This document shows positions 9,816-27,316 of a stretch of DNA of 64,000 nt, in pieces. Within the stretch, counting starts at the first letter, position 1. The number at the start of each line of letters is the position of its first letter. Source of the DNA: Candidatus Dormiibacterota bacterium (lineage in GTDB: Bacteria; Chloroflexota; Dormibacteria; Aeolococcales; Aeolococcaceae). The notes under the pieces were generated by a model. The model ran no database searches, was not told the origin of the DNA, and worked only from the letters and a program-made list of their open reading frames with translations. Location: NCBI GenBank assembly GCA_963708605.1, contig CAVPTG010000007.1, forward strand, positions 16,288-80,287, written 5' to 3'. A program made the position numbers and the translations under genes.

Positions 9816-9889
9816 TGGAGGCGACGGTGGGAATCGAACCCACGATCAGGGTTTTGCAGACCCGTGCCTTACCACTTGGCTACGTCGCC
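9816..9889 (-). tRNA. tRNA-Cys (GCA), CCA encoded
   Basis: Reverse complement GGCGACGTAGCCAAGTGGTAAGGCACGGGTCTGCAAAACCCTGATCGTGGGTTCGATTCCCACCGTCGCCTCCA folds as a cloverleaf. Confidence 0.97.
9853..9889. repeat. Left attachment core, 37-bp direct repeat
   Basis: TTTGCAGACCCGTGCCTTACCACTTGGCTACGTCGCC identical to 24740-24776. Confidence 0.95.
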
Positions 9890-9933
9890 GCTCGTATTCG
9901 GTTGTCCCCGGTTCGGTACTCTTCTCGGCCCTT

Positions 9934-9956
9934 CTGACACCTTCCCTGACACCTTC
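9934..9956 (+). repeat. Tandem CTGACACC sites, putative integrase arm-type sites (left)
   Basis: CTGACACCTTC at 9934 and 9946, 12-bp spacing; matching pair at 24611/24623. Confidence 0.75.
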
Positions 9957-10033
9957 GTGCCCTGGAGTTGTAAGCTTCCCGTAGAAGAACCCCCGCACCG
10001 CTCGAACGGCCGGGGGCATGGCCAGCAATTGAG

Positions 10034-11267
10034 GTGCTGACAGTGACGCAGTCTACCGAACCCCCGCTCGACGAGACACCCTCGCCACCTTCAAGTAGTG
10101 GGCGCCGGCGTCCGACCCGACGTGATCCAGGTGACGGTTCGATCTTTCAGCGAACCGATGGCCGCTGGGTCGCGAGGCTCCGAGTTCCTCACGGCGCCGG
10201 GTCATCCCGCTATTTCTATGCGAAGACCAAGGGGGAGGCGAAGGTCCGTCTGGCCGAGGCGAAGCGAGCGATCGAGGACGGTCGGCCGCTGCCCGATCAG
10301 CGGGTCACCGTGGGCACGTACCTCCAGGTGTGGCTCGCCGGTTTGCCGGTTGGCACCGCCAAGGCGTCGACGATCGCCTATTACGAGAAGTACGTCCGCC
10401 TCCACATCCTCACGAGCGATCTGGCGAGGAAGCCGCTGGCGCGCCTCGATGCCGCCGACCTCCGGCGCCTGTACGCCGAGAAGCTCGCCGACGGGGCTGA
10501 GCTCCACCACGGTCCACCACCTGCACGCGGTCATCCATCGGGCACTCAACAGCGCAGTCGAGGACGGCAAGCTGTCGCGCAACGTCGCGTCGCTCATCGG
10601 TCGAAGCAATCGCCCGAAGGTCGCCCGGAGGGAGATGGTCACTATCGCCAATGGCGACCAACCCCGCCGGTTCCTCATCGCTGCCAAAGGCGAGCGGCTC
10701 GAGGCGCTCCTGGTGCTCGCGCTCACGACCGGACTGCGCAAGGGCGAACTGCGCGCGCTGCGCTGGAAGGACGTGGACCTCGACCGCGGCGTGCTGGCTG
10801 TCCGCGGCTCGCTCATGGGCACAGCCAGGGCGGACATGGCGATCGGCACGCCGAAGAATGGCAAGGAGCGCGCCGTGTCGCTCGGGTCGACCGCTGTGAC
10901 AGCCCTCGGCGACCATCGGGCGCGTCAGCTCGAGGAGCGCAAGGTTGTGCCGATCCGTGGTGACCTCGGACTGGTGTTCTGCACTGAGTGGGGCGAGTTC
11001 CTACCCACGAACACCATTGTGCTCGCGCTTGAGCGGGTGCTCGCGCGCGCCGGCCTTCCGCACATTCGGTTCCATGACCTTCGGCACACTGCCGCCACCC
11101 TCATGCTCCAGCAAGGCGTCCATCCGAAGATGGCGTCGGAGATGCTCGGACACAGCAACGTGGCGATCACGCTCGACCTCTACTCGCACATCACGCCAAC
11201 GATGCAGCGCCAGGCCGCGGACGCCATCGAGCGCGCGCTGACCGACCCTCTCGTGATCCGATCGTAG
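10034..11267 (+). CDS. int: Tyrosine integrase (frameshift in GGGG near 10495)
   Basis: GDGSIFQRTDGRWVA arm domain; TGLRKGEL, FHDLRHTAAT, LGHSNVAITLDLYSH catalytic motifs. Confidence 0.93.
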
Positions 11268-11284
11268 GAAGATCGAGGGCCAAG

Positions 11285-11662
11285 ATGCGGTATCAGCAAC
11301 CCGGGTCGAGCCCTGAGATCGATTCCTCAGAGATCGAAATCCCCGACGAGCGCGACTGGGGCACCGGGAGTTTCACGACGAACTTTTTGCCGTCCGCTCT
11401 AACAGCGACCAAGGCCATTTTCTCCGTCATGGCGAACCCTCCCACGTTCTTCATAACCGCGACCATGGGCGTGGGCGGCGACATCATCGCCGTTCTCGGC
11501 GAAGTGGACGGCTCGACCGGCAAAGATCACCGGGTGTTCCTTCTTCCCAGGAATCTCGACCCGGAGCCAGCTCATTCCCTAGTCATTCACTTCAAGGATT
11601 GGCGTCTCGTTCAGGCCGATCTTGACGGCGTCTACCTAGCCACCAAGACCACGACCACATAG
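11285..11662 (+). CDS. Hypothetical cargo protein
   Basis: 125-aa ORF with normal protein composition downstream of int. Confidence 0.55.
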   Translation: MRYQQPGSSPEIDSSEIEIPDERDWGTGSFTTNFLPSALTATKAIFSVMANPPTFFITATMGVGGDIIAVLGEVDGSTGKDHRVFLLPRNLDPEPAHSLVIHFKDWRLVQADLDGVYLATKTTTT

Positions 11663-11667
11663 TCGGA

Positions 11668-13891
11668 TCACGATGGCGAACTGATGTCCAGGCCACCACG
11701 GATAGGGGTCATGCGGTGGTTTCCAGCCACTAACTGCCGCCGAAGATCGAGGGGATCGACCCCGCGCGTTTGAGGGTGAGCAGCTGATTGCGCATCTGCT
11801 TGGCGGTCGCCTCTGGACTCTGCGCGCGCCGGGATGTGGAAGTGGATACCGCCGTTCACGTTGACGCCGCCGCCCCCGCCGCCGTTCGGGGCGACGCTGG
11901 CGATGTTGATCCCGTTGCCGCCGGCCAGCGCCTGCTTGATGATCGAGCCCGTCTGGTTGTAGGCCAGGCTCGTCCCCACCGCTCGGGCGTCCGCGATGAT
12001 CCCCTGGATCAGCCCTGCGGCCCGGATCGCGTCGGCGGTGGCGTTGCGGGTGGCGATGATCTCCGCGGTCATGGCCGCGTGGTAGTCGCGCATGTCCTGC
12101 TGAGCGGTGTCAGTGCCCCGCTTGACCGCCTCGTTGTATGCCTTGATCCTGGCGAGACGGTCGTCCTCCTCCCTCTGCAAGGCGAGGTTGCGCCAGTTGT
12201 TCGGACCACCGCGACCGGTCCCAGCGCCTCCTGCGCCAACCCCCTCCCCGGGCTTAGTGGTATGCCCTCCGGTCAGGATGTTGTAGAAGTCGAAGAGAAC
12301 CCCGCCGGCGACGACCGCGCCAGCCGCGACCGTCACGCCGCGCTGCGATCGATCCGCCGCCGCCGGCACCTTCGGCCGCGTTCACAGCCCCGCTCCCGGC
12401 ACCGCCGCCGCCGGCCATCATTTCCCAGTTAGTGACGAACACCCGCTGACCGGCCGCGGACGAGGCGGCACCGAGCACACCCCCGCCGGACGAGGACGAG
12501 CTGCCAAGCCCGGTGATCGCATGGAGGAGGTTCCCCGCGACGTTCCCGGTCAACAGGGTCTTCAAGTCGCCGAGCACGCTGCCCGCGGCCGTCTTGATCT
12601 TCGCTCCCGCCCAGAGCGCGGTCATGGTTCCTGCGAAGGCTTCGAACACAGTCTTGTGGTCGACGATGAAGCCGATCACATCCTTCACCGGGGGATACAG
12701 GTCGTTGGCGATGAAGCTGCCGGCGTCCTGCGCCGCGGTGCCGAGGAATTGCACCGCGTTGACCGCGAAGCTCTCGATCTGCGCCTCGTGGCCGCTCACC
12801 CACTTGGCGATGTTGTCGAGCCCCGGGAGCAGCGCCTGGCCCGGCCACCCGAGCGACGCTCTGCATGTCCGCGCCCATGGTCGCGAACGGATTTGCCGGC
12901 CACATAGGACGATGCGGCCGCCCCCCACGTGCTTCTCGATCGGTGGTCGAGCGACGCTGCGGGCAGGTTGCGCGAACTGGTTCGCTCATCGCCTTGGTGT
13001 CGGTGGCTCACCTTCAGGGTCGCTAGCATCGAGCTTCTCGTGCGCGGCGATCGTGCTGTGCGCGCTGCCCTGTCCGTATTTGTCGAGCAGCAAGCTGATA
13101 CGCCTGCTGCGCCTTCTCCGCAGCCGCCGTTGCGCTGTTGAGCGCCGTCATCTTGGGGACGATGGTTGGCAGGATGATGCCCAGGTCCTGCAGCCCTCGT
13201 CCCTGTCCTTGGGTGGCTGTTGAGCAGGTCATCCATGGACGTGCCGAGGTCCGAGACGCCATCAGCAGAGTTTGCATCGCGCGAGGTCGCGGCGATCCAT
13301 GTCACTGGCGCCGCATCTGCTCGGTCGACCGGGATGCGTGCCTGGTGCGAGCTTCAGCAGGGCTGCGTGGTTGACTCGGTCCTCGATGAATCCGACGTGC
13401 GGCCAGCTTGTCCAGCAGTGAGCGTCGATCGGCTGCATCGGTAACCCGAGCTAGGTGGTAGCGCCTGCATGCTTCGGGCTCTGCAGTGCGGTCCGGCGAA
13501 TGCCGCCCCATTTGCGTCGTCGTATATGCCTGCGGCGATGAGGATCATCGCTGCTGGACTGCAGCCGCCTTCACGCCCTCGGCCGCCCTGCGGCCCCGCC
13601 AAAGAGCGCGCCGATCCCGGCGGTCTGGCCGACCATGGAGACGCATGCCGCCGAGCGCGCCCTTGATCGAACTGCCAACGCTTGCCGAATGCCTTGTCGA
13701 GCAGGGAGACGTTCTTCACGCCCTTGCCGCCGATCTCGCTCTCCGCAGCCTTGCCGATGCCGCCCATGCCGCCGCTCACATTGCCGAGCCGCGAACTCCA
13801 GGGATCCGGCGGCGGCCTCACCCTCGCCGGCGGCACGGACCAGGCCGGCGGATGAGCCGGTGATGTCGACAAAGAATTACTCTATGGACAT
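11668..13891 (-). CDS. Phage tail tape-measure-like protein (multiple frameshifts)
   Basis: Stitched frames: VDITGSSAGLVRAAGEGEAA..., GLQDLGII, ALLPGLDNIAKWVSGH..., GQRVFVTNW, GGGVNVNGGIHFHI; Ala/Gly-rich helical composition; about 740 codons. Confidence 0.65.
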
Positions 13892-14116
13892 GCGTCAGGT
13901 CGCTCGACGTGTCGTTGCCACGCCCCCAGCGTGGCGGTCCCGAGGAGTTGCTCGCGCTGGGATCCGACTTACTATCGCGGGGCACACTCGACCGCGAAAT
14001 AGGACACCGATCGGCGAGCGTTCGGCGCTGAAATGCGTTACACTGCAACGGAAAAGGGCCGCGCTGCTACTGAACAGCCGGCCCCGTGGCCAGACCCTGG
14101 ATTGGAGGACCTGACA

Positions 14117-14482
14117 ATGGCAATCGTACCCTGTGACCCCGTCACATCACCCGCCGCTGGTATCGGCGCGCCGTTCGCAGCATGGCACCGTGACGGGGGG
14201 TGTGACACAGCACGTGACCCCCTCACACCGAGCTGGACCCGCCAGCGTCTGGAGCGTGTCGCGCGACGTCATGGCCTGCAGCTCGTCGAGACGAGGCATC
14301 GCTGGAGCGAGGCCGACGGCGGGGGCGAGGGCGGATTCGGGCTCGTGGATTGGGAAGGTGGGGTGATCGCCTATGGCGGCGGCCTTCCCTGGCCGGGCGC
14401 AACCCTCGAGGAGGTCATCGACTTTCTGCATTCGCCGGAAGCCGAGGCGAAGGTGTGGAGGATGGAGAACTGGGGTCTGTGA
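14117..14482 (+). CDS. Hypothetical protein
   Basis: ATG after GGAGGA; in frame with ORF 14033-14482; stop overlaps the recombinase start. Confidence 0.55.
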   Translation: MAIVPCDPVTSPAAGIGAPFAAWHRDGGCDTARDPLTPSWTRQRLERVARRHGLQLVETRHRWSEADGGGEGGFGLVDWEGGVIAYGGGLPWPGATLEEVIDFLHSPEAEAKVWRMENWGL

Positions 14483-15525
14483 CCTCAGTCAAGAGGCGCA
14501 GGCGGGCCCGAATGGGCCCGCCACATCCCCGGGCCACGCGACCCAGTGCCGGCGCAGTTCGGCACCTACCTTGAGTGGCTGAGTGTCGAGCGCAACCGTC
14601 CCCGCACGACCGTCCGCACCTACCGGCAGGATCTCGCGAAATTCGTGGCGTTCCTGTCGACCACTGTCGACCTGCGCAGTCCTGACGTGCTCGAGGGCGT
14701 CGACCGGGCGGTGCTTCGGCGCTATCAGATCGAGCTCGCCGACGTGCTGCCCAATCCACGAACGCGCAACCGTTCCCTGGTGGTGCTGCGCAACTTCCTC
14801 CGCTTCGCCTATGACGAGGGTTGGACCGACGAAGGAGTTGAGCCGGCAGGTCACCCTGCCACGCTTCGTGATGGGCGACCCGCACCCGATCCCCACCGAA
14901 GACGTTCCAAAGCTGCTCGCCGCGTTGCCGAAGCGCAACCTGCGTGACCAGCGTGACCGGGCACTGGTGGCCTTCCTGATGGCGTCCGGCTGCCGCATCG
15001 CCGAGGCGCTGGCGCTGAATCGCGGCGACGTGCGCGCCGACGGCTTCCGCGTGCTCGGCAAGGGTGGAAAGCATCGAACCGTATACGTCACCGCGGCGGC
15101 ACTGGCGACGGTGCGCGAGTATCTGCGCCGGCGGGGTCCGGATCTGTCGCCGGCTCTGTTCATCAGCCTTGCGCGGAAGGACGTCTTTCAGGGTGTGCAG
15201 GCGGACAATCGGCTGACAGACAGATGGCGCCAGGAGGGCCGTGGCGGCGCTGCGCGGCCGGATGAGCACCGATGCCGAGAGCTTCCGGCTGTGGAGGGGC
15301 TTGCATTCGCCTCACGTCGCGCGTCACACCGCGGCGACCACGCTCCTCGAGGCGACCGACGGCGACGTGCGCCTGGTGCAGGAAGTCCTCGGCCACGCGT
15401 CGCTCTCGACCATGCAGATCTACACCGAGATCACCGACAAGCGGAAGAAGGAGGCCTATCGCCGGCTGAGCGCCTACCTCACCGGCGTCGCCAACCCTGA
15501 ACACCAGTCCGGCGCGCATCGATGA
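14479..15525 (+). CDS. Second tyrosine recombinase, XerC/D-like (2-3 frameshifts)
   Basis: [23 protein letters not shown] (SAM-like), [49 protein letters not shown]. Confidence 0.85.
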
Positions 15526-15785
15526 GCGTCCAGTGGAACCCGGAGCCAGGCGCGACGTTGCCATGGTGGCTCACCGAGGAGCTGCCGGCCGGGACAGGGA
15601 CCGCGATGGTGCGGTGTCTCGCCGTTCTCGCGGCGTTCCTTGCTGACGAGCTCGCGCTACCAGCAGGGACAGTGCCCGCGCTGCTGCGCGCAGCTCTCGA
15701 CGACTACAGCCGGTCGGATGGGCCGATGGGCGTCGAGCGTGGTCTGTTGAGCGTGTATGACGCTGTGCGCGCCGCCTTCGGTTAG
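15522..15785 (+). CDS. Hypothetical protein
   Basis: ATGA overlap with the recombinase stop. Confidence 0.6.
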
Positions 15786-15997
15786 CGGACTGATGTTCGG
15801 CCGAGGTGGCTTATGGAAACGGGGGTCGTTACGGTGGCTGGGCTGCTGAGCCCGCCGTACACCGGGCCACCGACGTAGGCCGGCATCAGCACGGCCTGGT
15901 GCGGTGGCGCGGGCTGGAGAACGATGGCGAGCCCGATTGCGATGCCGAGCGCCACTGCTGACAGGATGGCCAGCCGGAGCGCGTTCACCTTCCTCAC
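15782..15997 (-). CDS. Small single-TM protein (leaderless)
   Basis: MRKVNALRLAILSAVALGIAIGLAIVL; TATACT 7 nt upstream of GTG. Confidence 0.65.
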   Translation of the reverse strand: MRKVNALRLAILSAVALGIAIGLAIVLQPAPPHQAVLMPAYVGGPVYGGLSSPATVTTPVSISHLGRTSVR

Positions 15998-16073
15998 GGG
16001 GCTGAGTATAGAAGGCCCGCGAACACGACCGCCGAGGTTGCTATGGGCTCAGCTCTGACCCGACAATGGGCGG

Positions 16074-16229
16074 GTGAGAGCTTGGGTCATCGTGCTCGCT
16101 CCGCTGCTTGCGCTCGCTGTCCTCGGCCTGGCGCTGCATATGGTCACACGATGGGAACTCGCGGTCTTTGCCGCGGCCTTCGGTGTGCTGGTCGGCACGA
16201 CGCGAGTGCTCGATCAGAAGTTGAGGTAA
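16074..16229 (+). CDS. 51-aa two-TM microprotein (below ORF-track cutoff)
   Basis: MRAWVIVLAPLLALAVLGLALHMVTRWELAVFAAAFGVLVGTTRVLDQKLR; GACAAT 6 nt upstream of GTG. Confidence 0.6.
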   Translation: MRAWVIVLAPLLALAVLGLALHMVTRWELAVFAAAFGVLVGTTRVLDQKLR

Positions 16230-16239
16230 GGCAACCCGG

Positions 16240-16410
16240 TCAGCGTTTCCCCGGTGCTCTCACATCGGGCGCGTAGACCGCGATCCCCAGAAGCACCACG
16301 AGCAATGGCCATGGCAGCCCGAAGGGCCGGATGCGCAGGATCCAGAGGATCACCGACAGGAGTAGGAGCGCTCCCACGATGGGCCAGCGTCCCTTCTGGA
16401 GCCCAAGCAC
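16240..16410 (-). CDS. 56-aa two-TM microprotein (below ORF-track cutoff)
   Basis: MLGLQKGRWPIVGALLLLSVILWILRIRPFGLPWPLLVVLLGIAVYAPDVRAPGKR; CACACT 7 nt upstream of GTG. Confidence 0.6.
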   Translation of the reverse strand: MLGLQKGRWPIVGALLLLSVILWILRIRPFGLPWPLLVVLLGIAVYAPDVRAPGKR

Positions 16411-16425
16411 ACGCGCAAGTGTGCG

Positions 16426-16974
16426 CTAGCAGGCAGGGTCACCGCCAGGATTGTGCGAGAGCAGCGGCATGGTCCAATACTGATTGCCACCAGCACCCTG
16501 GTTGGTCAGGAACGATCCATAGCCGTAGTTGTCCACGATCGCGACCGCCGGGTTGCACTCCTGACCATCGGGTCCATTGCCGTTGTAGAACGGACTGTAA
16601 TAGGCGCCGTGGTTCTGCGCCCCGGCCGGGGTAATGCCTCCAAATCCGCTCTGGTAGTACACCGGATTGGTATTGACCCCCGGCCAGTCCTCGAGCGTCA
16701 CGGCGCTGTTGGTGTTATCCATGTCGTTGTCGGAACTGGTCCATTCCATTCCGACCAGCGTGTTGTTGATGCAGATGCCCGAGTGGTTGACCCATTCCTC
16801 AAGGTAGACGTAGACCTGCCCGCTGCCGTAGGGGAAATGGCCGGCCTGCGCTGTGCGGGTGAAATTGTTGAGGTTGGTGCAACCGTTCGCCGAGGCGATC
16901 TTCGGCGATCCGATGGCGAAGGCCGACACCGTTCCGAGGATGGCAACCGTCAGGAGCGCGAGGCGTCGTTTCAC
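16426..16974 (-). CDS. Secreted Asn/Gly/Tyr-rich protein
   Basis: Signal peptide MKRRLALLTVAILGTVSAFA...ASA; four Cys in the mature part. Confidence 0.75.
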   Translation of the reverse strand: MKRRLALLTVAILGTVSAFAIGSPKIASANGCTNLNNFTRTAQAGHFPYGSGQVYVYLEEWVNHSGICINNTLVGMEWTSSDNDMDNTNSAVTLEDWPGVNTNPVYYQSGFGGITPAGAQNHGAYYSPFYNGNGPDGQECNPAVAIVDNYGYGSFLTNQGAGGNQYWTMPLLSHNPGGDPAC

Positions 16975-17017
16975 TCCCCGACGTTGCGATCAGGCCGAAC
17001 TTGCCCCGTTCACGCGC

Positions 17018-17362
17018 TCAGTCGAACCACCCGGGTAAAAGCCCGGGCAGTGCGGATGGCAGGATCTCATCCACCCACCAGTTGCGCGTGCTCGGGACGG
17101 TTTGGCCCGGTGCAACGACGTCGGGGAGGGGATACGCGGCTCTCACCACCCTCGCGTCGCCCACACGCGTCCAGTGATTGCCGGCCGCATCGATGCAGCG
17201 CCAGAGCGCCCACTCGTCGGCGTCACGCGGAAGGTCCGGAAACTGAGCCCAATCGATGCCGTCGTGGAAACCAGGGACCTGAGCCACCGGCAAGAGGGTT
17301 ACATGGTCCGTCCAGGCGAGCTCGCCGACCGGGCCCTCCATGGACACGTGCAACGCGGTCAC
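17018..17362 (-). CDS. Hypothetical Trp-rich protein
   Basis: 4-nt overlap with the upstream gene in the minus-strand operon. Confidence 0.6.
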   Translation of the reverse strand: MTALHVSMEGPVGELAWTDHVTLLPVAQVPGFHDGIDWAQFPDLPRDADEWALWRCIDAAGNHWTRVGDARVVRAAYPLPDVVAPGQTVPSTRNWWVDEILPSALPGLLPGWFD

Positions 17363-17544
17363 GCGAACACCGCCGCCTCAACCGGCAGGAGCCCGTCCTC
17401 CGCGGCCTCGTTGAGCGCGTCGGCCTCCGGATGCCCGCAGTGACCTTCGCGTTCCCAGCACTCCGCGCACAACGCGCCCTCGCACCACCAGCAGATCTCA
17501 TCGCAGCCCGGAGCAATCCCGACACCGCAACATCCGCAGGTCAC
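17359..17544 (-). CDS. Small Cys-rich zinc-finger protein
   Basis: MTCGCCG...[21 protein letters not shown]. Confidence 0.65.
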
Positions 17545-18054
17545 GCGGTCGCCTCGAACTCGAATGGCGGCGTCTGACAGAACCCTCTATGCCCGGCGAA
17601 ATAGCCGCACCGTGGCGATCCGCCGCGTCCTCCACAGTGGTCCCGTTGGTTTCGCCGGCGGTTGCGCGCCTGCGTCGAAGCGGTAGCCCAACGAGCGTTA
17701 TCCGGGCTGTATGGGCCATTGACGTCGATGCGATCGAGGGTCATCCCGAACGGCCGCGGGCCCATGTCGGCGAGAAAGTTCTCGAACCGATCCCAGCGCG
17801 GATCGATGGTGATGCCGCGGCCGCCGTAGTTGCCGAAATGCAGGTGGTGGGCGTTCCGGACCCGCTCGCGCATGCTTATCCAGCTCTTGTATTCGGGTGT
17901 TTGACCGCCTCTCGAGGCGGCGCCATGGGTGGTACGGGCTCGGGCGGCGGCCGGCATCGCCGTGCTCTCCCAGCAGGCGACACACAGCGGCGTCCGGCAA
18001 TGCCAGCAGTGCTCCGACCTGGTCGATCTCGCCCCCGCACCGACCGCAGGTCAT
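17541..18054 (-). CDS. Zinc-finger + phage HNH-like endonuclease (frameshift near 18015)
   Basis: [12 protein letters not shown]...[42 protein letters not shown]; upstream Cys-rich segment joined by one shift. Confidence 0.75.
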
Positions 18055-18066
18055 GGGATCAGGCAG

Positions 18067-18322
18067 CTACCAGAGCGGCTGCCAGTGGGCGCCGGCGTCG
18101 CCGACGGGATTCGTGCCCTTGAGGCCGGAGACCTTGGTCACGTAGACGTGCCCGTCAGACCCGGTGGCCTGGGCGCCGAGCGCGTAGCTGATCGATGCGC
18201 TCCATGTGGCAACGTCCTGGTGGACAACCGCGAACTGCTGTGTTCCGTCAGGCCAGGTCGGCTGACCCGAGATCGGGCGCAAGAAAGATCGTTCCTGTCG
18301 GTGCCGATGTCGGCGTGGTCAT
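18067..18322 (-). CDS. Small protein with CBM5/12 (ChtBD3)-like domain (frameshift near 18283)
   Basis: WSASISYALGAQATGSDGHVYVTK...NPVGDAGAHWQ aromatic spacing. Confidence 0.55.
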
Positions 18323-18919
18323 CGCTGAGGTGCGCCCCGGCCTGCGCACGTGCCGTTGCCGGCCGCAGACACAGCCAGCGGCGTGCGAGCGTACCCGATG
18401 CCATCGACCCAGGCGTCGTACCAGCGTCGGACGCTGCCCGGCGCCCTCGAGGTTCGCTGCGGTTGCCGAGGTCAGGCCGACGCGTCGCAGGCGATCGCGA
18501 AGGCGCGGGCGTCGGTCGACACGCGCGACCCTGACGGCGGATCTCGTCGCACCATGCCCTGGAGCGACGCCAGCGCTTCCTGCGGCGTCAACGCAGCGGG
18601 CACGGCGGGTGGCGCCACGGTGCGGGCTGCGGTGAGCACGACGGTTCGGGTCGAGCGTGAGCAGTGCGATGGCAGGCGTCCGGCGAGCTGCTTCGCGCAA
18701 CCGCGGTGAGCTGTGCGCGGCGTCAGGTAGCAAACGATCCTCGGGCACTGCCGCGAACCGTGGTTGCGCTGCCGGGTGGCATCCATGACCGCATCGGTGG
18801 CTGCGTCGTGTCGAGGCGTTCGCGCGGCGCAGCGCCGGATCTCGATGAGCGGCTCGCCGGTGCTCGAGCTGCGGTTCCGGCGTCCGCGGGTCTCGGATCA
18901 TCTCGCTGAGTGTCGGCAT
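18319..18919 (-). CDS. Hypothetical protein, frameshifted
   Basis: ATG after GGAGA (MPTLSEMIRDP...); fragments in several frames; ATGA overlap with the next gene. Confidence 0.35.
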
Positions 18920-19100
18920 GTTGGTCTCCAGGTGGTGAGGCGAATGAGGGCGACGCCAACGGTGCCTAACCCGCAACCAAGAAGCACAGCCGTCCGTTGG
19001 CCGTCGCCTCGCCTGCATCTTCGCGCTGCGCGAGGGTTGCGTCCGCGGCGAACAGGCGCCACGATTAGGCGCGCTGGGCGAGCTTGAAGAAGGAGAAGCC

Positions 19101-19214
19101 ATGAGAGGACGCACTTGGGGGATGGAGGCTCAGACGATTGCGTTCTGCGTGGTCTGGGCGATCGGCCTGCTGATTCTTATCGCCGTTCTCAATGCCCTCA
19201 CCACGGTTAAGTAG
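19101..19214 (+). CDS. 30-37-aa single-TM microprotein
   Basis: (MRGRTWG)MEAQTIAFCVVWAIGLLILIAVLNALTTVK; AGGAGA upstream of 19101, alternative ATG at 19122. Confidence 0.5.
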   Translation: MRGRTWGMEAQTIAFCVVWAIGLLILIAVLNALTTVK

Positions 19215-19443
19215 CGTCTGGCGAGTGAGGGTGGCGACGCCCCAGGTGACGCAGCCAGGTGCAGTGGAAAACAGCCCAACCGCAGGGGCGCCGCCGTGAG
19301 TTGCGAGACGATGGCGCGCCCCGCACCGTCTTGACCCAGCGCGGGACGCGCCGACCGATCAACCACGACGATCATCGGGTATGGTCAGGTTTGCCGCTGC
19401 TGCGAGTGGAAAGTCTCGACCTCAGCGGTCATGATTGCCCGTA

Positions 19444-19599
19444 ATGGGAAGGCACGCGGTCGTGGCGGCAGCCGTGGCCTTCGTCGTCGTGGCAGTCTGG
19501 CTCGCCGTGGCGCTAGTCCTGGTCACGCCCGTCACGGCGCCGGGGCCGGCGCAAATCATCCCGACGTTCAGCGGCATCCCGAACGCCCTCTCGTCATGA
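19444..19599 (+). CDS. 51-aa single-TM microprotein
   Basis: MGRHAVVAAAVAFVVVAVWLAVALVLVTPVTAPGPAQIIPTFSGIPNALSS; CATGAT 8 nt upstream. Confidence 0.6.
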   Translation: MGRHAVVAAAVAFVVVAVWLAVALVLVTPVTAPGPAQIIPTFSGIPNALSS

Positions 19600-19607
19600 T
19601 TGCCCGC

Positions 19608-19805
19608 ATGGGAAGGCTTCTGCGGCAGATCGGCATCGCGACGCTGATGACGGCCGTCGTCGTCGTGCCGATGGTTGTCTTGGGCCCGCGGCCCGCGCGT
19701 CCGGAACCTGACGTCATTGCACCTTGCCGTTCGCCCAACAGGTCGCTCGGATCGCCGCGCCCCCGACCTTCACGGCCACGCCGAAGCGCGCCAGCGCCCT
19801 CGTGA
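19608..19805 (+). CDS. Small single-TM protein, paralogous start to 19444
   Basis: MGRLLRQIGIATLMTAVVVVPMVVLGP...; CATGAT 7 nt upstream; C-terminus may be frameshifted. Confidence 0.5.
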   Translation: MGRLLRQIGIATLMTAVVVVPMVVLGPRPARPEPDVIAPCRSPNRSLGSPRPRPSRPRRSAPAPS

Positions 19806-19806
19806 G

Positions 19807-20355
19807 GTGAACCGGCTGCTCGCGGGTCTAGCCATCTCCGGAGCGGCGCTCGCGGCGGCGAGTTGCAGTCCTGGAGGCACGACGGTCAATAGCCCGTCGA
19901 CGCCCGACACATCGACATCCAAACCAGCCGCGGCGTCGGCTCACGTTGGCGCCACGCTAACGCTGAATGGCCTCACCTCCGAGAAGCTGCAGATCACCGT
20001 CGTGAAGCTGGTCGACCCAGCACCGCCGTCCAGCCAGTTCGAGGCCCCGCCGGCTGGCACTCGCGAGATTGCGCTCGAGATCCGCTACAAGAACATGGGC
20101 ACCGTGACCTACAACCAGAGCATCCTCACCGACATCACGGTGGTCGACAAGGGCTCACACGACTTCAGCGTCGATCTCGCCTACGACACCTCTGCCGGCC
20201 CTGGCTTTCCGAGCGACAACGTCGACATCGCGCCAGGCGAGACCGAGGACGGTTTCGTGCCCTTCCAGGTCGAGACGGCATCAGTGATCAGCGAAGTGAA
20301 AATTGGCCTCGACGAAGGCTTCGGGCCAGATACCGGCGAATGGCTGGTCCCGTAA
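19807..20355 (+). CDS. DUF4352-like lipoprotein
   Basis: Lipobox-like LAAASC; VGATLTL...KLQITV...YKNMG...IAPGETEDGFVPFQV Ig-like fold pattern. Confidence 0.75.
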   Translation: MNRLLAGLAISGAALAAASCSPGGTTVNSPSTPDTSTSKPAAASAHVGATLTLNGLTSEKLQITVVKLVDPAPPSSQFEAPPAGTREIALEIRYKNMGTVTYNQSILTDITVVDKGSHDFSVDLAYDTSAGPGFPSDNVDIAPGETEDGFVPFQVETASVISEVKIGLDEGFGPDTGEWLVP

Positions 20356-20415
20356 GGTCCAAACCCTGGCGTACTCTCAGGCTGTGGCGCAACGGATCTT
20401 TCAGAGGAGCGAGGA

Positions 20416-20649
20416 ATGACGTTCATCGAGATCGCGGGTAACAGGAAGGCGTGGGTCAACACGGATGCCATTGCGTCGATCGAGGAAGGCCCGGAGCACC
20501 ACGGCGCAATAGTGGCGCTGGCTGGTGGTGACCACTATCACGTCACCGATGGCGCCGATGCGGCACGGATCGCGGTCATCGAAGCGGCGAACGGCGGCAA
20601 ATCCATCCTCCTCCGTGATGAAAGCGTTGAGGCTGCGCCCGTCGAGTAA
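20416..20649 (+). CDS. Hypothetical protein
   Basis: GAGGA RBS; WVNTDAIASIEE small beta-rich domain. Confidence 0.6.
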   Translation: MTFIEIAGNRKAWVNTDAIASIEEGPEHHGAIVALAGGDHYHVTDGADAARIAVIEAANGGKSILLRDESVEAAPVE

Positions 20650-20725
20650 CGATCCTCAGCGCACGACCGACTTCCTAAGGGCGGGTCAATTGCGCAGTCA
20701 TCAGACGTGTACGGGTCTAAGCGAT

Positions 20726-21642
20726 ATGGCTATGACGACGGGTTCGACTGGGAACGCCAGATGGACGGTTGAGTTCGCGCGGCGACTTGCGCTCGTGCGT
20801 TACACGCTGCAGCTCGCTCAGGACCAAGCAGAGATCGCCATCCCCTCCACGCCCCGGCACTCCTGCTGATGCACGATGCCGCCGAACTCTTCCTCGTCCT
20901 TGTCGCCCAAGCATCGGACGCCGACGTCAAGAGCAGCATGGAGTTCCTGGCTTACTGGGACGTGATCGACACAAAGCTAGCGCCGGACCAACTCGGGCAC
21001 AAAGCCGAGATGGCTGCGATCAACAAGGCCCGTGTGGGGTTCAAGCACTCTGGTGTCATACCCAGCAGAGCCGAGATCCGACGCTTCGTTGCGATGACAC
21101 GCTCGTTCCTCGAGGACGCGACGCCGACCGTCTTTGGAGTTGCCCTCGATCAGGCGACGTTGGTCGACCTCGTTCCGTCCGCAGCAGTGCGCACTGCGCT
21201 CCAAGAGGCGGAGGCCGCAATCGCGGCAGGTGATGTGGCGACTGCCATGGGAAGGGCGCGGGTCGGATTCGAGTTGAGCTTGCGCGAAGACGATGAACGT
21301 GTCCGTCAGGCCACAGGCAGTCATCCACTCCGGATCACCGCCGCACATCTGCCCTCGGCCTTCTCGTTGAGCCTCCAGAAACTCCACGGCCAGTTCGGGC
21401 TGGCATGGGACGACCTGATCGCGGTAGTGAAGCGGACGGATGATGCCGTGCGCTTGATGGCGAAGGGCATCGATTACGCCGACTACATGCGCTTCGCGGC
21501 ACTCACGCCGCATCCCTTCTGGTCGTACGGACGCGACGAGCCGACTTTGATCAGCGGCGCCTCACAAGCCGCGGCGACGATCGACGACGCGCGCTGGGCC
21601 GTGGACTTCGCGATCCGCTCCGTGCTGATCGTCCTCGGCTGA
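20726..21642 (+). CDS. HEPN-like protein, candidate defence/toxin (frameshift near 20835)
   Basis: RRLALVRYTLQLAQDQ..HPLHAPALLLMHDAAELFL ... INKARVGFKH (R-x4-H). Confidence 0.55.
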
Positions 21643-21647
21643 GCGAT

Positions 21648-21671
21648 GAAGGTGTCAGGTTTGGGTGTCAG
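21648..21671 (-). repeat. Internal inverted copy of the tandem CTGACACC site pair
   Basis: Reverse complement CTGACACCCAAACCTGACACCTTC versus 24611-24633 CTGACACCCAACCTGACACCTTC. Confidence 0.85.
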
Positions 21672-21728
21672 ACGCGGGGCAACGGCACCTCGTGAATACG
21701 GGCCGGGTGAGTGTGTGAGACCCGCGCC

Positions 21729-22229
21729 TTAGCCGGCAGCGTCGATCCGTAGCGCGGCTTCGTGGAGCAGGGGGGTCGCGCCGCCCTGATAGAGCCCGTA
21801 CCTGATTTTGCTCTCGCAACCCGGACAGAGCTCGAGTTCCGCGGCAGCCATCTGGATCCCGATGAGCACCACCTTGTTGACCTCGGTGCGGAGTTCGTCG
21901 TTGATCTTCGTCTCCGGTTCCCACGCGCCAGCCTCGGAAGCCATCTTGGCGATGGTTGCAGCCTGACGAATCGCCTCGGCGTAGTAGGGCTGACCCTCAG
22001 CCGTCATGAGTGCGGCGCTGCGATCAAGCGCCTCCAGGAGCACATCATTCGGCCGGCGACCGCGCTCAACGAGTTTCGCGGGCAATGTGGTCATCGCGAC
22101 CCGGAGCTTGGCCTTGCGCCGGACGCGCGGCGCCTTGCCGCCGTGGAAGTCGCACACCGTGCCGCCGAGCATCGATTGACGTCCGCACTGCTGGCCTTGA
22201 CGATTCGTCGCGTGGCAGCGATCGCTCAT
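21729..22229 (-). CDS. HGGxSTG-like zinc-knuckle protein, putative terminase small subunit
   Basis: RCHATNRQGQQCGRQSMLGGTVCDFHGGKAP followed by a helical region. Confidence 0.6.
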   Translation of the reverse strand: MSDRCHATNRQGQQCGRQSMLGGTVCDFHGGKAPRVRRKAKLRVAMTTLPAKLVERGRRPNDVLLEALDRSAALMTAEGQPYYAEAIRQAATIAKMASEAGAWEPETKINDELRTEVNKVVLIGIQMAAAELELCPGCESKIRYGLYQGGATPLLHEAALRIDAAG

Positions 22230-22306
22230 GGGGTCTCGCTCATCTCATGGGGTTGTTCGGTCTGGCGGGGATGTCAGTAGTCTGAGGACGTCACGGCCTT
22301 GCGCTT

Positions 22307-23251
22307 TCATCCGACCGGTGGCACCGCTGCGCGCATCCGCTGAGTGACATAGCGGTCGTACGCGACGAGCGCCGCTTCGAATCGAGGTCGATCACGAAGG
22401 AACGTCGCATCTCGGATCGCCTCCTCGAGGTCTGCGAGAGGTCGATCGGCGAAGAAGATATCGGGTCGATCCCTGACGATCGCCCTGCGCCGGCGGAGTT
22501 CTCGGAGTGCGAGTATCGCCATTCGATCACTCCACGCCTCGTCGGTCGCCTGTGCGTGCTCCCTGCCCTTCTGCGCTGGCCGTCGGCGATGGTTTGCGCT
22601 CGGCGGTGGTCCTCGGCTTCCATCCACCCGGGTGGCAAACCTTGCCCTGATGGCTCTGGCACGCCGGCGACGCGTCGACACTCATCGATCGCGGTTCGCA
22701 TATCGACGTCCTTGGTCGGTTTCTGATCGCCTCCAGCATCCTCGGATGCGTCGTCGCCTCTGATCAGACTCTGATCTAAAGATCTGTTATCAGATCTGTT
22801 AAATAGGAACCGTAGGCGTTTCGTCCATGGTCGGTGGATGATTCGCCCATGGTTGAGGGACGGAATTACCACGGTCGAAGCCAGGATCGCCCATGGTCAC
22901 CTGGGCGGATCGCCCATAGTCACCGTGGGAGTTTCGACCATGGTTAGGGGAACTCCTGAACCGATCGATATTGTCGCGAAGTGCCTCGACGCGGATGCGA
23001 TATCTCGACGGATTGGATCGCGATGTGCCGCGCTGGTACTCGAGCTCACCGAGCCTTTCTAGGTCGTTGATCCCGAGGTTCGCAGTCTTGCGATCGAGCC
23101 GCGCCAGCCAGGCGATGCGGTCGAGCGACGCGTGCGTCCAGCCATTCTCGTTCCTGTTGCCGAGCGCCGCGATCGCCTGACCCACCAGGTAGGCGCGGTG
23201 CTGAGCGTTGCTGCGCGCTTGGAAGAGTTCGGTTGTCTTCCAATCGCTCAT
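22307..23251 (-). CDS. Phage-type replication initiator (N-terminal wHTH, iteron linker; frameshifted)
   Basis: ASLDRIAWLARLDRKTANLGINDLERLGELEYQRG...RYRI; repeats inside the gene. Confidence 0.65.
22759..22945. other. Putative replication origin: iterons plus AT-rich region
   Basis: CCAYRGT cores at 22825, 22847, 22869, 22891, 22914, 22938; AGATCTGTTA twice (22780, 22792). Confidence 0.7.
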
Positions 23252-23583
23252 TGCAGCCAGCCCTGAGCATCGAGGATCCGCAAGATGCGGCTCCATTGTT
23301 CCAGGTCGATGACCACGTAGGCGCTCGAGATGCTGGCGCGCCTGCGCTTGAAGATGACGCACCACCAGCGGGCGCCGGCGTTCTTCGCTTCCTTCTCGGC
23401 CTCGGCGACTGCGCGACCCATCTCCATGACGCCGGTGTTCTTGAGCTCCATGCAGACGTTCGGGATGCCGGCCACATCGCCGCGGTCGAGAGAGCCGCCC
23501 ATGACGCGCCGCTCCGCCTTGTCCCAGCCCTCCGCCCGGAGGTAAGCGATCACGTCGGCCTCGAATTTCGGCCCGCGCTTCAT
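23248..23583 (-). CDS. Phage Holliday-junction resolvase-like PD-(D/E)xK nuclease
   Basis: GPKFEADV...DRGDVAG...MELKN...FKRR. Confidence 0.75.
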   Translation of the reverse strand: MKRGPKFEADVIAYLRAEGWDKAERRVMGGSLDRGDVAGIPNVCMELKNTGVMEMGRAVAEAEKEAKNAGARWWCVIFKRRRASISSAYVVIDLEQWSRILRILDAQGWLQ

Positions 23584-23972
23584 GCCGGCTCGCCTGACAT
23601 GGCTTCGCGATACAGCTCGCTGAGACGCTCACGACTGACGCCAAGGGCCTCGGCGACTGTGACGAACGCCTCCGCAACTTTGACGTCAAGCCGTCCTCGA
23701 AGTTCGCAGCACCGCAACAAGCCAAGGACGACAGATGCGATCTCGCCGCTCGGCTCGAGGGCGCCATCTACCTTGAGTTCGGCCTGCCAAAGGGTAAGCG
23801 CGCCCACGGCAAGGCGAAACAGGCGGTCGTTCTCACGGACGGCAGCTGCGATCCGGTCGGTACGTTCTGCCGGGCCGTATATCCAGTCGGGATCCCAGTC
23901 CGGTCCGGGGGCAGCCTCGTCGTCCGTGGGATGATCGATGTGTTGATCGCGGTGGGCGGCGGCATCTTTCAT
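23580..23972 (-). CDS. Hypothetical protein
   Basis: ATGA overlaps on both sides. Confidence 0.65.
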   Translation of the reverse strand: MKDAAAHRDQHIDHPTDDEAAPGPDWDPDWIYGPAERTDRIAAAVRENDRLFRLAVGALTLWQAELKVDGALEPSGEIASVVLGLLRCCELRGRLDVKVAEAFVTVAEALGVSRERLSELYREAMSGEPA

Positions 23973-24193
23973 GTGGTGTCGCTGCCTCCCGGCCCTTTCG
24001 TCGACCGGAGCCGCTCGAGATACGCGCGGAGCGACGACTCGACGACACGCGTCGCCCGAGCGCCGAGGGAAACCGCCTCAAGCTCCCCGCGGCCAACCAG
24101 TCGCCACGCCTGGCGTTCGGAGATTCCGAGACGCCGCCCAGCCTCACCGACGGACACCAGCAGAGGGGGCTCGAGAACTGTATGGGTGTTCAT
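23969..24193 (-). CDS. Excisionase/AlpA-like HTH protein
   Basis: LLVSVGEAGRRLGISERQAWRLVGRGEL. Confidence 0.85.
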   Translation of the reverse strand: MNTHTVLEPPLLVSVGEAGRRLGISERQAWRLVGRGELEAVSLGARATRVVESSLRAYLERLRSTKGPGGSDTT

Positions 24194-24267
24194 CGCGACC
24201 TACCCTGCCAGTGGGTGCCTGTTGCCCCTACGCGGTGTGGAAATGGGCGCCAAGCCGTCGTCCATCG

Positions 24268-24516
24268 CTATCCGTGGTCGGGGAGTTCAGCCTGGACGCG
24301 CTCCGCGATATAGCTGCTGACACTGCTCGCCGGGATGCGCCGCAGCCGGCCGACGTGAATCGAACTGAGGTCGCCGGCGACGATCAACCTCCAGACGAAC
24401 GAGCGGCTGCAGCCGAGCATCTCGGCCACCTCCACATCACGCAATAGCCGGTCGGGCGCGGCCAGAGTTGGGGCGGTCGCTTCCAAAGGTTTGTCTCCTT
24501 GCGCTGCTGTGTGCAA
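24268..24516 (-). CDS. Excisionase-like HTH protein
   Basis: LLRDVEVAEMLGCSRSFVWRLIVAGDLSSIHVGRLRRIP. Confidence 0.85.
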   Translation of the reverse strand: MHTAAQGDKPLEATAPTLAAPDRLLRDVEVAEMLGCSRSFVWRLIVAGDLSSIHVGRLRRIPASSVSSYIAERVQAELPDHG

Positions 24517-24520
24517 CTAG

Positions 24521-24537
24521 GAGTTCCAGTAGAACTC
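24521..24537. promoter_or_regulatory. Inverted repeat upstream of the xis operon, possible operator
   Basis: GAGTTC-N5-GAACTC. Confidence 0.4.
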
Positions 24538-24610
24538 GGAAGCGTTACGACCGATCAACCCAAGCGTTGCTCGCCGCGCACCCGTGAATGGATAAAGACG
24601 CGAGCCCGAG

Positions 24611-24633
24611 CTGACACCCAACCTGACACCTTC
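24611..24633 (+). repeat. Tandem CTGACACC sites, putative arm-type sites (right)
   Basis: CTGACACC at 24611 and 24623, 12-bp spacing. Confidence 0.75.
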
Positions 24634-24739
24634 GTCAGTGAATGCGCCGCAACGCCGGTGGACGCGACAGGCTGTCTAGGCGCTTGTTTCGTATTCGGGA
24701 GACACTCTCTGCAACGTCTGTGGACGGTACAAACCGGAC

Positions 24740-24776
24740 TTTGCAGACCCGTGCCTTACCACTTGGCTACGTCGCC
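24740..24776. repeat. Right attachment core; displaced 5' half of tRNA-Cys
   Basis: 37-bp exact match to 9853-9889. Confidence 0.95.
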
Positions 24777-24844
24777 CCGTGACCTGGAATGCGCCATTGT
24801 CGCCGAAGAACCCGCGCGCGCCTCACCGAGGCCGCGGCATGGGG

Positions 24845-26543: not shown

Positions 26544-27316
26544 ACGATCTCGCAACGCTGACCGCGCTGCTCGCGCGCGAAGGATTCATCGCGGCGGCTA
26601 GCGAGGCGGAGGAGTTGCTCGCATTCGCGGCGGGCGATCCGGCGCTGCTCGACGCGTCGGTTCGGCGCCGGCTCACCGGTGAGCCGCTGGCCTGGATCAC
26701 CGGGACCGTCGTCTTCTGCGACATCACCGTCCGCGTCGATCGTGACGTCTACGTCCCGCGATGGCTCAGCGAGCCGCTCGCGCGCAGAGCGGTGCAGCGG
26801 CTGCCCGCCACCGGGACCGCGATCGACCTGTGCACGGGATCCGGCGCGATCGCCGCGGTCCTTCGCGCCCATCGTCCGCACGCACGCGTCGTGGCCTCCG
26901 ACATCGATGCACGAGCGGTTGCGTGCGCTGCCCGAAACGGCGTCGATGTGTACCTGGGCGACCTCTTCAGCCCATTGCCAGCTGACCTTGCGGGTCAAGT
27001 CGACGTCGTGGTCAGCGTTGTCCCATATGTTCCAACGCCCGAGTTGCCGTTGCTGCAGCGGGATACCTTCGCCTTTGAGCGACCGCTTTCCTATGACGGT
27101 GGGACCGATGGCACCGACATCCTCCGGCGCGTCATCCGCGAAGGTCCGCGCTTCCTCCGTGACGGAGGTGCGCTCCTCCTCGAGCTCGGCGGCGACCAGG
27201 CGGGACTCCTCACCGACGAGCTCGTCCGCCTCGGTTACAGCGAGCCGGCGGTTCTCACCGATGAGGACGGCGACGTGCGGGGGATCGAGGCGACCTTCAG
27301 GCGGCGAACCGCCTGA
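26540..27316 (+). CDS. HemK/PrmC-like SAM-dependent methyltransferase
   Basis: RRLTGEPLAWITG, YVPR, DLCTGSGAIA, DGGTDG; frame stays protein-like back to CTG 26540. Confidence 0.8.
   Translation: MNDLATLTALLAREGFIAAASEAEELLAFAAGDPALLDASVRRRLTGEPLAWITGTVVFCDITVRVDRDVYVPRWLSEPLARRAVQRLPATGTAIDLCTGSGAIAAVLRAHRPHARVVASDIDARAVACAARNGVDVYLGDLFSPLPADLAGQVDVVVSVVPYVPTPELPLLQRDTFAFERPLSYDGGTDGTDILRRVIREGPRFLRDGGALLLELGGDQAGLLTDELVRLGYSEPAVLTDEDGDVRGIEATFRRRTA

Follow-up and report, generated by a model that had tools for sequence, protein, structure and literature searches.

A degenerate att-like module with an intact pair of putative integrase arm-type sites inside a tRNA-Cys island: a candidate pseudo-att relic

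The attachment sites of lambda Int, mycobacteriophage L5 and the actinophage Int-Y integrases are the closest described systems for a mobile island found in a 64-kb stretch of Candidatus Dormiibacterota DNA (the window). The likeness lies in a short motif, repeated as tandem pairs to either side of a core that belongs to a tRNA, and in an adjacent integrase with a predicted three-strand-plus-helix N-terminal domain and a core-binding domain. There is also a likeness to accreted elements of the ICESt1/ICESt3 type, namely an att-derived site inside a composite island. Accretion (tandem elements, CIME) leaves a complete internal att in direct orientation. For actinophage tyrosine integrases, pairs of putative arm-type sites are described as flanking the attP core, and a tRNA 3' half as common core is given as the rule (PMC10865867). 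In KplE1 (IntS/TorI), the arm sites of the integrase in attL are described as doubling as regulatory sites (PMC2951348).

The window departs from each of these systems in some respect. Unlike the lambda/L5 type, it has a third, flipped pair at 3 kb from the nearest core, with a decayed core alongside. Unlike the product of accretion, this flipped pair goes with a core-like stretch that is direct but decayed (27/36 columns). A related island, G098, does carry a direct internal P-arm-plus-core module, as accretion would have it. The common core is a tRNA 5' half, in contrast to the 3' half of the phages described in PMC10865867. As in KplE1, the attL pair lies just upstream of the integrase gene (int). 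However, promoter-like sites were found at none of the three pairs (9880-10110, 24480-24760 and 21300-22100 were scanned), and the internal pair sits between two gene ends. What, then, is the internal site? The reading preferred here, with moderate confidence, is that 21645-21750 is a degenerate third att module, a pseudo-att relic with an intact putative integrase-binding pair.

The island measures about 15 kb (9853-24776) and is inserted in a tRNA-Cys gene. The target, tRNA-Cys(GCA), occupies 9816-9889 on the minus strand with its 5' end toward the island (ARAGORN; Rfam tRNA, 68.1 bits). A repeat search showed that the attL core (9853-9889) is a 37-nt direct repeat identical to 24740-24776. 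It comprises tRNA positions 1-37, the 5' half as far as the anticodon loop. The copy at 24740-24776, the attR core, is the displaced 5' half of the host tRNA-Cys, with the host flank next to it; the relative G102 is 100% identical over 24740-24800. In G102 and four further genomes of the same genus the site is empty, with the island flanks contiguous and overlapping by the 37-nt repeat. The left flank is 89.7% and the right flank 93.5% identical in G102, where the overlap is exactly this repeat. Because the flanks are contiguous in relatives and overlap by the repeat, the 14.9 kb between the repeats is an insertion. A megablast comparison of the island with phage records gave no match. Protein P0003 had no relative in viral contigs, and genome contigs yielded only a 28-residue match in an unrelated MAG.

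Since the repeat is the tRNA 5' half, the working tRNA gets its 5' half and upstream region from the island after integration. The same arrangement, with the tRNA 5' half (positions 1 to about 37) as direct repeat and int facing the tRNA 5' end, is seen in L066, L081, L082, L084, L085, L086 and L088. Within the lineage, islands at tRNA-Tyr, Phe, Arg and Cys have this 5'-half layout. Other islands of the lineage, at tRNA-Ser and at one tRNA-Phe, have the usual 3' half as repeat. ARAGORN also places a tRNA-Arg(GCG) at 26591-26680 of the window which, at 90 nt, is unusually long for its isotype.

One clue to the organization of the att sites is the 8-mer CTGACACC. The window holds seven copies where shuffles give a mean of 2.35 (sd 1.57), and seven copies were reached in 0/100 shuffles. 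Six of the seven make up three tandem pairs, at 9934-9953 (+), 24611-24630 (+) and 21651-21671 (-). The attL (P') pair at 9934-9953 stands between the tRNA, whose 5' end is 44 nt away, and int, which starts about 80 nt downstream of the pair, and a pair is found in the same place beside int homologues in relatives. Between it and the attL core lies a GTATTC box (9894-9899, read from the sequence), which alignment also places in the P arms of relatives. The attR (P) pair at 24611-24630 stands 109 nt before the core, and a distance of 108 nt is found in tRNA-Ser elements as well. The motif is present in both arms at a set distance from the core, 44 nt in attL and 109 nt in attR, with like distances in relatives, as expected of arm-type sites. 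The seventh copy, at 12106 (-), was taken as chance; it has no partner within 220 nt and lies inside coding sequence. An idea formed by eye, that the second attL copy is a -35 box preceding TAAGCT (9971-9976), was dropped; the promoter scan found none there.

The motif is not peculiar to the window. The exact pair (3-6 nt spacer) is found at 38 places in 27/117 genomes of the family (including the unpublished G004 and G005), against 0 for the reversed pattern used as control. Homologues of the N-terminal 120 residues of the integrase are present in 62/117 genomes, a count that includes the unpublished G004, G005, G014 and G060. In the fetched loci the pair occupies two places. One is 45-75 nt from a tRNA (Cys, Tyr, Phe, Arg, Thr or Ser), just upstream of an int homologue, and the other is 108-150 nt before the distal core copy. 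The P arms of relatives share G(T/C)GGACG words and the GAATAC/GTATTC box, as read by eye from an alignment. The integrases of G039 and G070a have a diverged N-terminal domain, and both of each island's own ends have ATGTCACC pairs instead; these two form one lineage, and the co-variation has no statistical weight.

A structural model of the integrase N-terminus (pLDDT 86) has strands at residues 2-6, 12-17 and 25-30 and a helix at 33-48, followed by the core-binding domain. The top row of a Foldseek search with this N-terminus was lambda Int at E 8.3e-3, and none reached E 0.001. Residues 55-120 match integrase core-binding domains (Z 6.2-6.8). Residues 1-54 gave Z 5.9 against AP2/GCC-box domains, which is suggestive only, being below the level that excludes a common arrangement. 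Pfam found no arm-binding family in the N-terminus, the only match being SAM_3 at E 0.072. The pairs are taken as arm-type sites because of the set distances to tRNA and int, the shift of the motif with the N-terminal domain, the model of that domain and the paired arm sites of actinophages. Therefore, the CTGACACC pairs are probably the arm-type sites, presumably bound by the integrase, of a lineage common in this bacterial family, and an earlier note's proposal to this effect gains support. For this integrase lineage the survey thus defines the motif of the arms, their spacing from the core and the tRNAs that are targeted.

The internal pair (21651-21671, minus strand) has its two copies 13 nt apart, start to start, and is flipped relative to both end pairs. 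Its spacer is CAAAC, with one A more than the CAAC of attR. If the start is set at 21648, a conserved TTC flank is included; both 8-mers and the TTC are perfect. Together with its flanks (about 21645-21678) the pair forms a 34-column inverted repeat with 24605-24637, 30/34 columns matching the attR pair region. The 2.9-kb segment between them is thus bracketed by a 34-nt inverted repeat, as had been claimed. From left to right the site consists of pair, box and core, which is the order in attR. The box is a GAATAC (21694-21699) that lies 22 nt from the pair; the same box lies 21 nt from the internal pair of another island, G084:C76. Next comes a palindrome, CGGGT-11 nt-ACCCG (21704-21724), which recalls the anticodon stem, with a spacer of 11 nt and not 7.

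The core part begins 46 nt (21672-21717) from the pair. Here AGACCCGCGCCTTA, at 21718-21731, matches 9858-9871 of the att core in 13/14 positions. This word belongs to a longer stretch, 21718-21750, that appears to be a decayed att core with tRNA-Cys 5' half. It is oriented as in attL and attR and agrees with the tRNA half of attR in 27/36 columns, with 3 gaps. The TTTGCAG overlap is absent; its position reads GTGTGTG and is not identical to the partner sites. The nearest inverted core half-sites, CGGGT/ACCCG, are 11 nt apart, outside the 6-8 bp of functional att. Compared with attR, then, the internal site is compressed (46 nt vs 114 nt from pair to AGACCC), its pair is flipped, its overlap is replaced and its tRNA half is decayed. 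The earlier note had described an inverted recurrence of the end-site pair that differs from the right copy by one A, and a 13/14 core match at 46 nt in which the TTTGCAG overlap is not conserved. Both descriptions were accurate. The likeness extends further than it had noticed, at the pair as well as at the core. Its view that the site is derived from an att is supported.

Could such a likeness be fortuitous? With a 5-nt spacer and no more than two mismatches, the pair pattern has one match where 0.05 is expected, and at least one was obtained in 5/100 shuffles. For the core, the best 14-mer match within 150 nt on either side of the internal pair was taken. Among 1500 random 300-nt windows of the same 64 kb, none reached 13 against any core 14-mer and 44 reached 12. 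With the pair masked, the score of 21718-21750 against the attR tRNA half was reached in 4/200 shuffles. The internal similarity is not chance, since pair and core-like stretch are both far beyond it. Other searches of the site were negative. The exact 24-mer of the internal site had 0 matches in metagenome contigs, the fold of 21636-21740 was no better than shuffles on either strand (z -1.07 and +0.35), and Rfam gave no family other than tRNA over the internal site or the related modules. It was also considered whether the internal pair is followed, at about 109 nt, by a P-arm-like core. MAFFT placed a CTTGTGAGG word 82 nt away, in coding sequence, and this was judged spurious.

The site fills the 86-nt gap between two convergent ORFs, 20869-21642 (+) and 21729-22229 (-), and coding potential extends to both edges of the gap. 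No intrinsic terminator was found between these ORFs; the only terminator-like match (21884-21900) is inside an ORF. On the left is the last ORF of the cargo, 257 aa long (phrog_37995, unknown function), with its stop 8 nt before the internal pair. The island cargo has no counterpart in relatives save for this one ORF; downstream of its homologue in G082 (61% aa identity) the pair is missing. On the right is a phage-like small protein of 166 aa, possibly a small terminase. Its last 6 codons and stop fall inside the tRNA-like remnant, the stop codon within the core-like stretch. The terminase assignment is at best a lead, based on a sub-threshold HGGxSTG, on phrog_3678 (unknown function) and on an atlas score of 0.82 to TerS clusters. 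The nearest relative of this protein is 91% identical over residues 1-101 and unrelated beyond, and the C-terminal half of that relative matched none of the frames of the window. This suggests that the C-terminus is modular or that a recombination joint lies near 21927.

Leftward from attR, the 2.9-kb segment encodes two HTH_17/excisionase-like proteins, a RusA-like resolvase and the 166-aa phage-like protein, all on the minus strand. The two HTH_17 genes (23969-24193 and 24268-24516) match Pfam HTH_17 at 2.5e-7 and 2.7e-10 and TIGR01764, and the RusA-like Holliday junction resolvase gene (23248-23583) matches phrog_244 at 7e-20 with a GC3 of 0.88. The earlier note had spoken of a xis-rep-terS module. 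The name as a whole is not supported. The two excisionase-like genes and the RusA-like resolvase are supported, no rep gene was found in the island, and terS stays at the level of the lead just described. A 322-aa ORF at 22799-23767 overlaps the RusA-like gene in another frame. Third-position GC changes phase along it, and it is probably not one gene.

At the other end of the island, int (10034-11267, plus strand; Pfam Phage_integrase 2.7e-27) adjoins attL. Its translation keeps to one frame until about 10492 and continues in the +1 frame, with the shift at a G run (10492-10495). The homologue in G084, 76-87% identical, is a single open frame. The frameshift may be a true mutation or a homopolymer error. 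In the second, XerC/D-like recombinase (14546-15525, plus strand) Pfam recognizes SAM_1 and two Phage_integrase pieces, distributed over three ORFs. The assembly has both of the island's recombinase genes interrupted, int by the shift at the G run and the XerC/D-like gene over three frames, whether by decay or by sequencing error. The sole other int paralogue in the genome is 37% identical. The island further contains an HNH endonuclease and several ORFs of no known function.

Extra pairs recur in related islands. Ten islands bounded by tRNA direct repeats contain 7 internal extra pairs (up to two mismatches) in 93,723 nt, whereas their flanks, 99,364 nt in all, contain 0; one genome per species was used, and kin are not independent. 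A flipped internal pair is present in 5/10 islands (the window, G110, G114, G039 and G070a) and direct internal pairs in G098 and G114. G070b and G046 have a flipped pair inside the P' arm, and G089 and G063 have no extra pair. The count leaves aside the pair-bounded L059, L079 and L080, which lack an extra pair, and the incomplete L058, L070/L090, L087 and G084:C76, which have flipped ones. Relatives have complete P arms, each with a core-like word, as their extra modules, several of them with a whole tRNA-Ser 3' part. The internal site of the window is without such an extended P arm, only 34 columns matching. The closest to it is that of G084:C76, with a flipped pair of 13-nt spacing, the box at 21 nt, a RusA-like gene beside it and a distance of 3.4 kb to the end pair. 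G039 and G070a have a flipped CTGACACC pair with TTTGCAGAC after it. These modules share homology with the attR of tRNA-Cys islands that stops right after the word, at the int 3' end. Judged from sequence, they look like recombinant junctions, being att modules whose end coincides with the crossover.

Among the loci inspected, the tRNA-Phe islands L082 (11770-11950) and L084 (17863-18040) have ATGTCACC end pairs and a flipped CTGACACC pair against the int 3' end, with TTTGCAGAC about 150 nt later; their homology to the attR of tRNA-Cys islands extends up to the TTTGCAGAC word only. Small islands at other tRNAs (Pro, Val, Met, Leu) carry direct arrays of conserved P-arm-plus-core modules (L061 10090-10845, L067 9430-11223, L062, L065, L060, L052 and L057). 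Some of these modules have a whole tRNA-Ser 3' part and others a CTCAAGAACC core-like word. In L061 and L067, two of them flank a WapI-family immunity gene. The direct arrays look like cassette-like accretion. Lastly, phage-like IMG/VR contigs of about 80 kb (L091 9823-10106, L092 and L093) have dense two-way CTGACA(CC) arrays, with 7-8 exact copies in about 300-400 nt. No homology of these contigs to any island ORF was found, int included, and the ORFs flanking the arrays had no Pfam match.

How might the internal site have come about? In the reading preferred here, earlier recombination among islands of the integrase lineage would have left a pseudo-att relic, which would sit where the cargo meets the xis/RusA/terminase-like module. 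The perfect arm-type pair can probably still be bound by the integrase N-terminal domain. The core part would have decayed with loss of the overlap, and strand exchange, whether inversion or excision, would not be expected. A scar of module capture had been among the origins suggested earlier, and it fits best because the tRNA-like core is decayed and without overlap. The 166-aa protein, with its relative that is 91% identical up to residue 101, supports a mosaic joint near the internal site as far as sequence comparison goes. The geometry does not fit a simple history. The flipped pair is accompanied by a direct core-like stretch, and the 46-nt spacing is close to that of P' (44 nt) while in sequence the pair belongs to the P (attR) type. 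On paper, four histories were tried, namely tandem accretion, an inversion between attL and an inverted core, an inversion with attR, and a 3'-type attL followed by deletion; none gives the observed layout.

The state of the pair also raises a different idea. Perfect 8-mers and TTC flank beside a decayed core-like stretch could mean selection on the pair. This favours a pair that is maintained as an accessory site for integrase binding and has a part in architecture or regulation, which is put forward tentatively as the main alternative, less probable than the relic. Such a site could form a bridge to the attR pair that loops out or insulates the leftward xis-to-terminase-like operon, act as a roadblock between the convergent operons, between which no intrinsic terminator was found, or sequester integrase. 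The pair may also be a decoy or loop for integrase, as suggested earlier. The 7 internal pairs in the ten islands against none in their flanks, five of the islands having a flipped one and G070b and G046 a flipped one in P', speak for a function, as do the similar 3.4-kb bracket of G084:C76 and the integrase arm sites described as doubling as operators in KplE1 (PMC2951348). However, the extra pairs vary in place from island to island, 0.2 to 10 kb from int and beside different genes, and those of relatives are complete P-arm-plus-core modules, unlike that of the window. The pair-bounded L059, L079 and L080 and the repeat-bounded G089 and G063 do without one, the flipped pair of G039 and G070a differs from the island's own arm motif, promoter-like sites are absent at all three pairs, and int is frameshifted. 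The recurrence in relatives could count against a relic in another way, as a sign of a built-in function. A flipped spare att-like module (arm pair plus core-like word) would then be a regular part of the lineage islands, marking the border between int-proximal cargo and the xis-replication-packaging core rather than being debris. This is rather doubtful. Such a module could be a place of cargo capture, or could let integrase bridge to the P arm in control of excision.

What if the site is still active? The earlier note had suggested an invertible or separately excisable module, and the 34-column inverted repeat bracketing 21.65 to 24.63 kb, with a core-like stretch beside the pair, is what might suggest it. 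However, an invertible segment has two inverted cores, and here the arm pair alone is inverted; the core-like stretch is oriented as both att cores, which relative to attR would allow a deletion at most. With a direct core-like stretch that lacks the overlap, neither inversion nor clean excision of the 2.9-kb segment by the integrase is expected. The half-sites stand 11 nt apart instead of 7, the pair is 46 nt from the core against 109 nt in attR, int is frameshifted, the second recombinase is in three pieces and the other int paralogue is only 37% identical. Inversion or excision of the module driven by the integrase is thus very unlikely. Might the CTGACACC pairs be the operators of another DNA-binding protein, an HTH_17 protein or a host factor, rather than arm sites? 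The dense motif arrays in three phage-like IMG/VR contigs without homology to island ORFs would agree with this, as would the many P-arm-like modules of relatives that lie far from any int homologue of the lineage. Nevertheless, the latter carry a tRNA-Ser 3' part and are att sites for that reason. The distances to tRNA cores are conserved on both arms with an int homologue adjacent in most cases, the motif changes with the integrase N-terminal domain in G039 and G070a, and paired arm-type sites are described flanking the core for actinophage tyrosine integrases (PMC10865867). Operators of this kind are accordingly improbable. There is hardly any likelihood of chance similarity or of an assembly artefact at the junction. 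The genome is indeed a draft (19 contigs, 80% complete), but the shuffle and random-window statistics for pair and core, and the coding potential up to both sides of the gap, speak against either. A 34-nt repeat is too short to mislead an assembler.

If the internal site is a pseudo-att relic, it would be a readable trace of module swapping at att sites within one integrase lineage. It would also be a caution against counting each copy of an arm site as a working end. If instead the pair is maintained, a widespread group of tRNA islands would regularly use arm-type sites outside attP as a device for control or capture. A device of that kind lies outside the lambda/L5 picture. The survey of arm motif, arm-to-core spacing and tRNA targets helps to delimit such islands in genomes.
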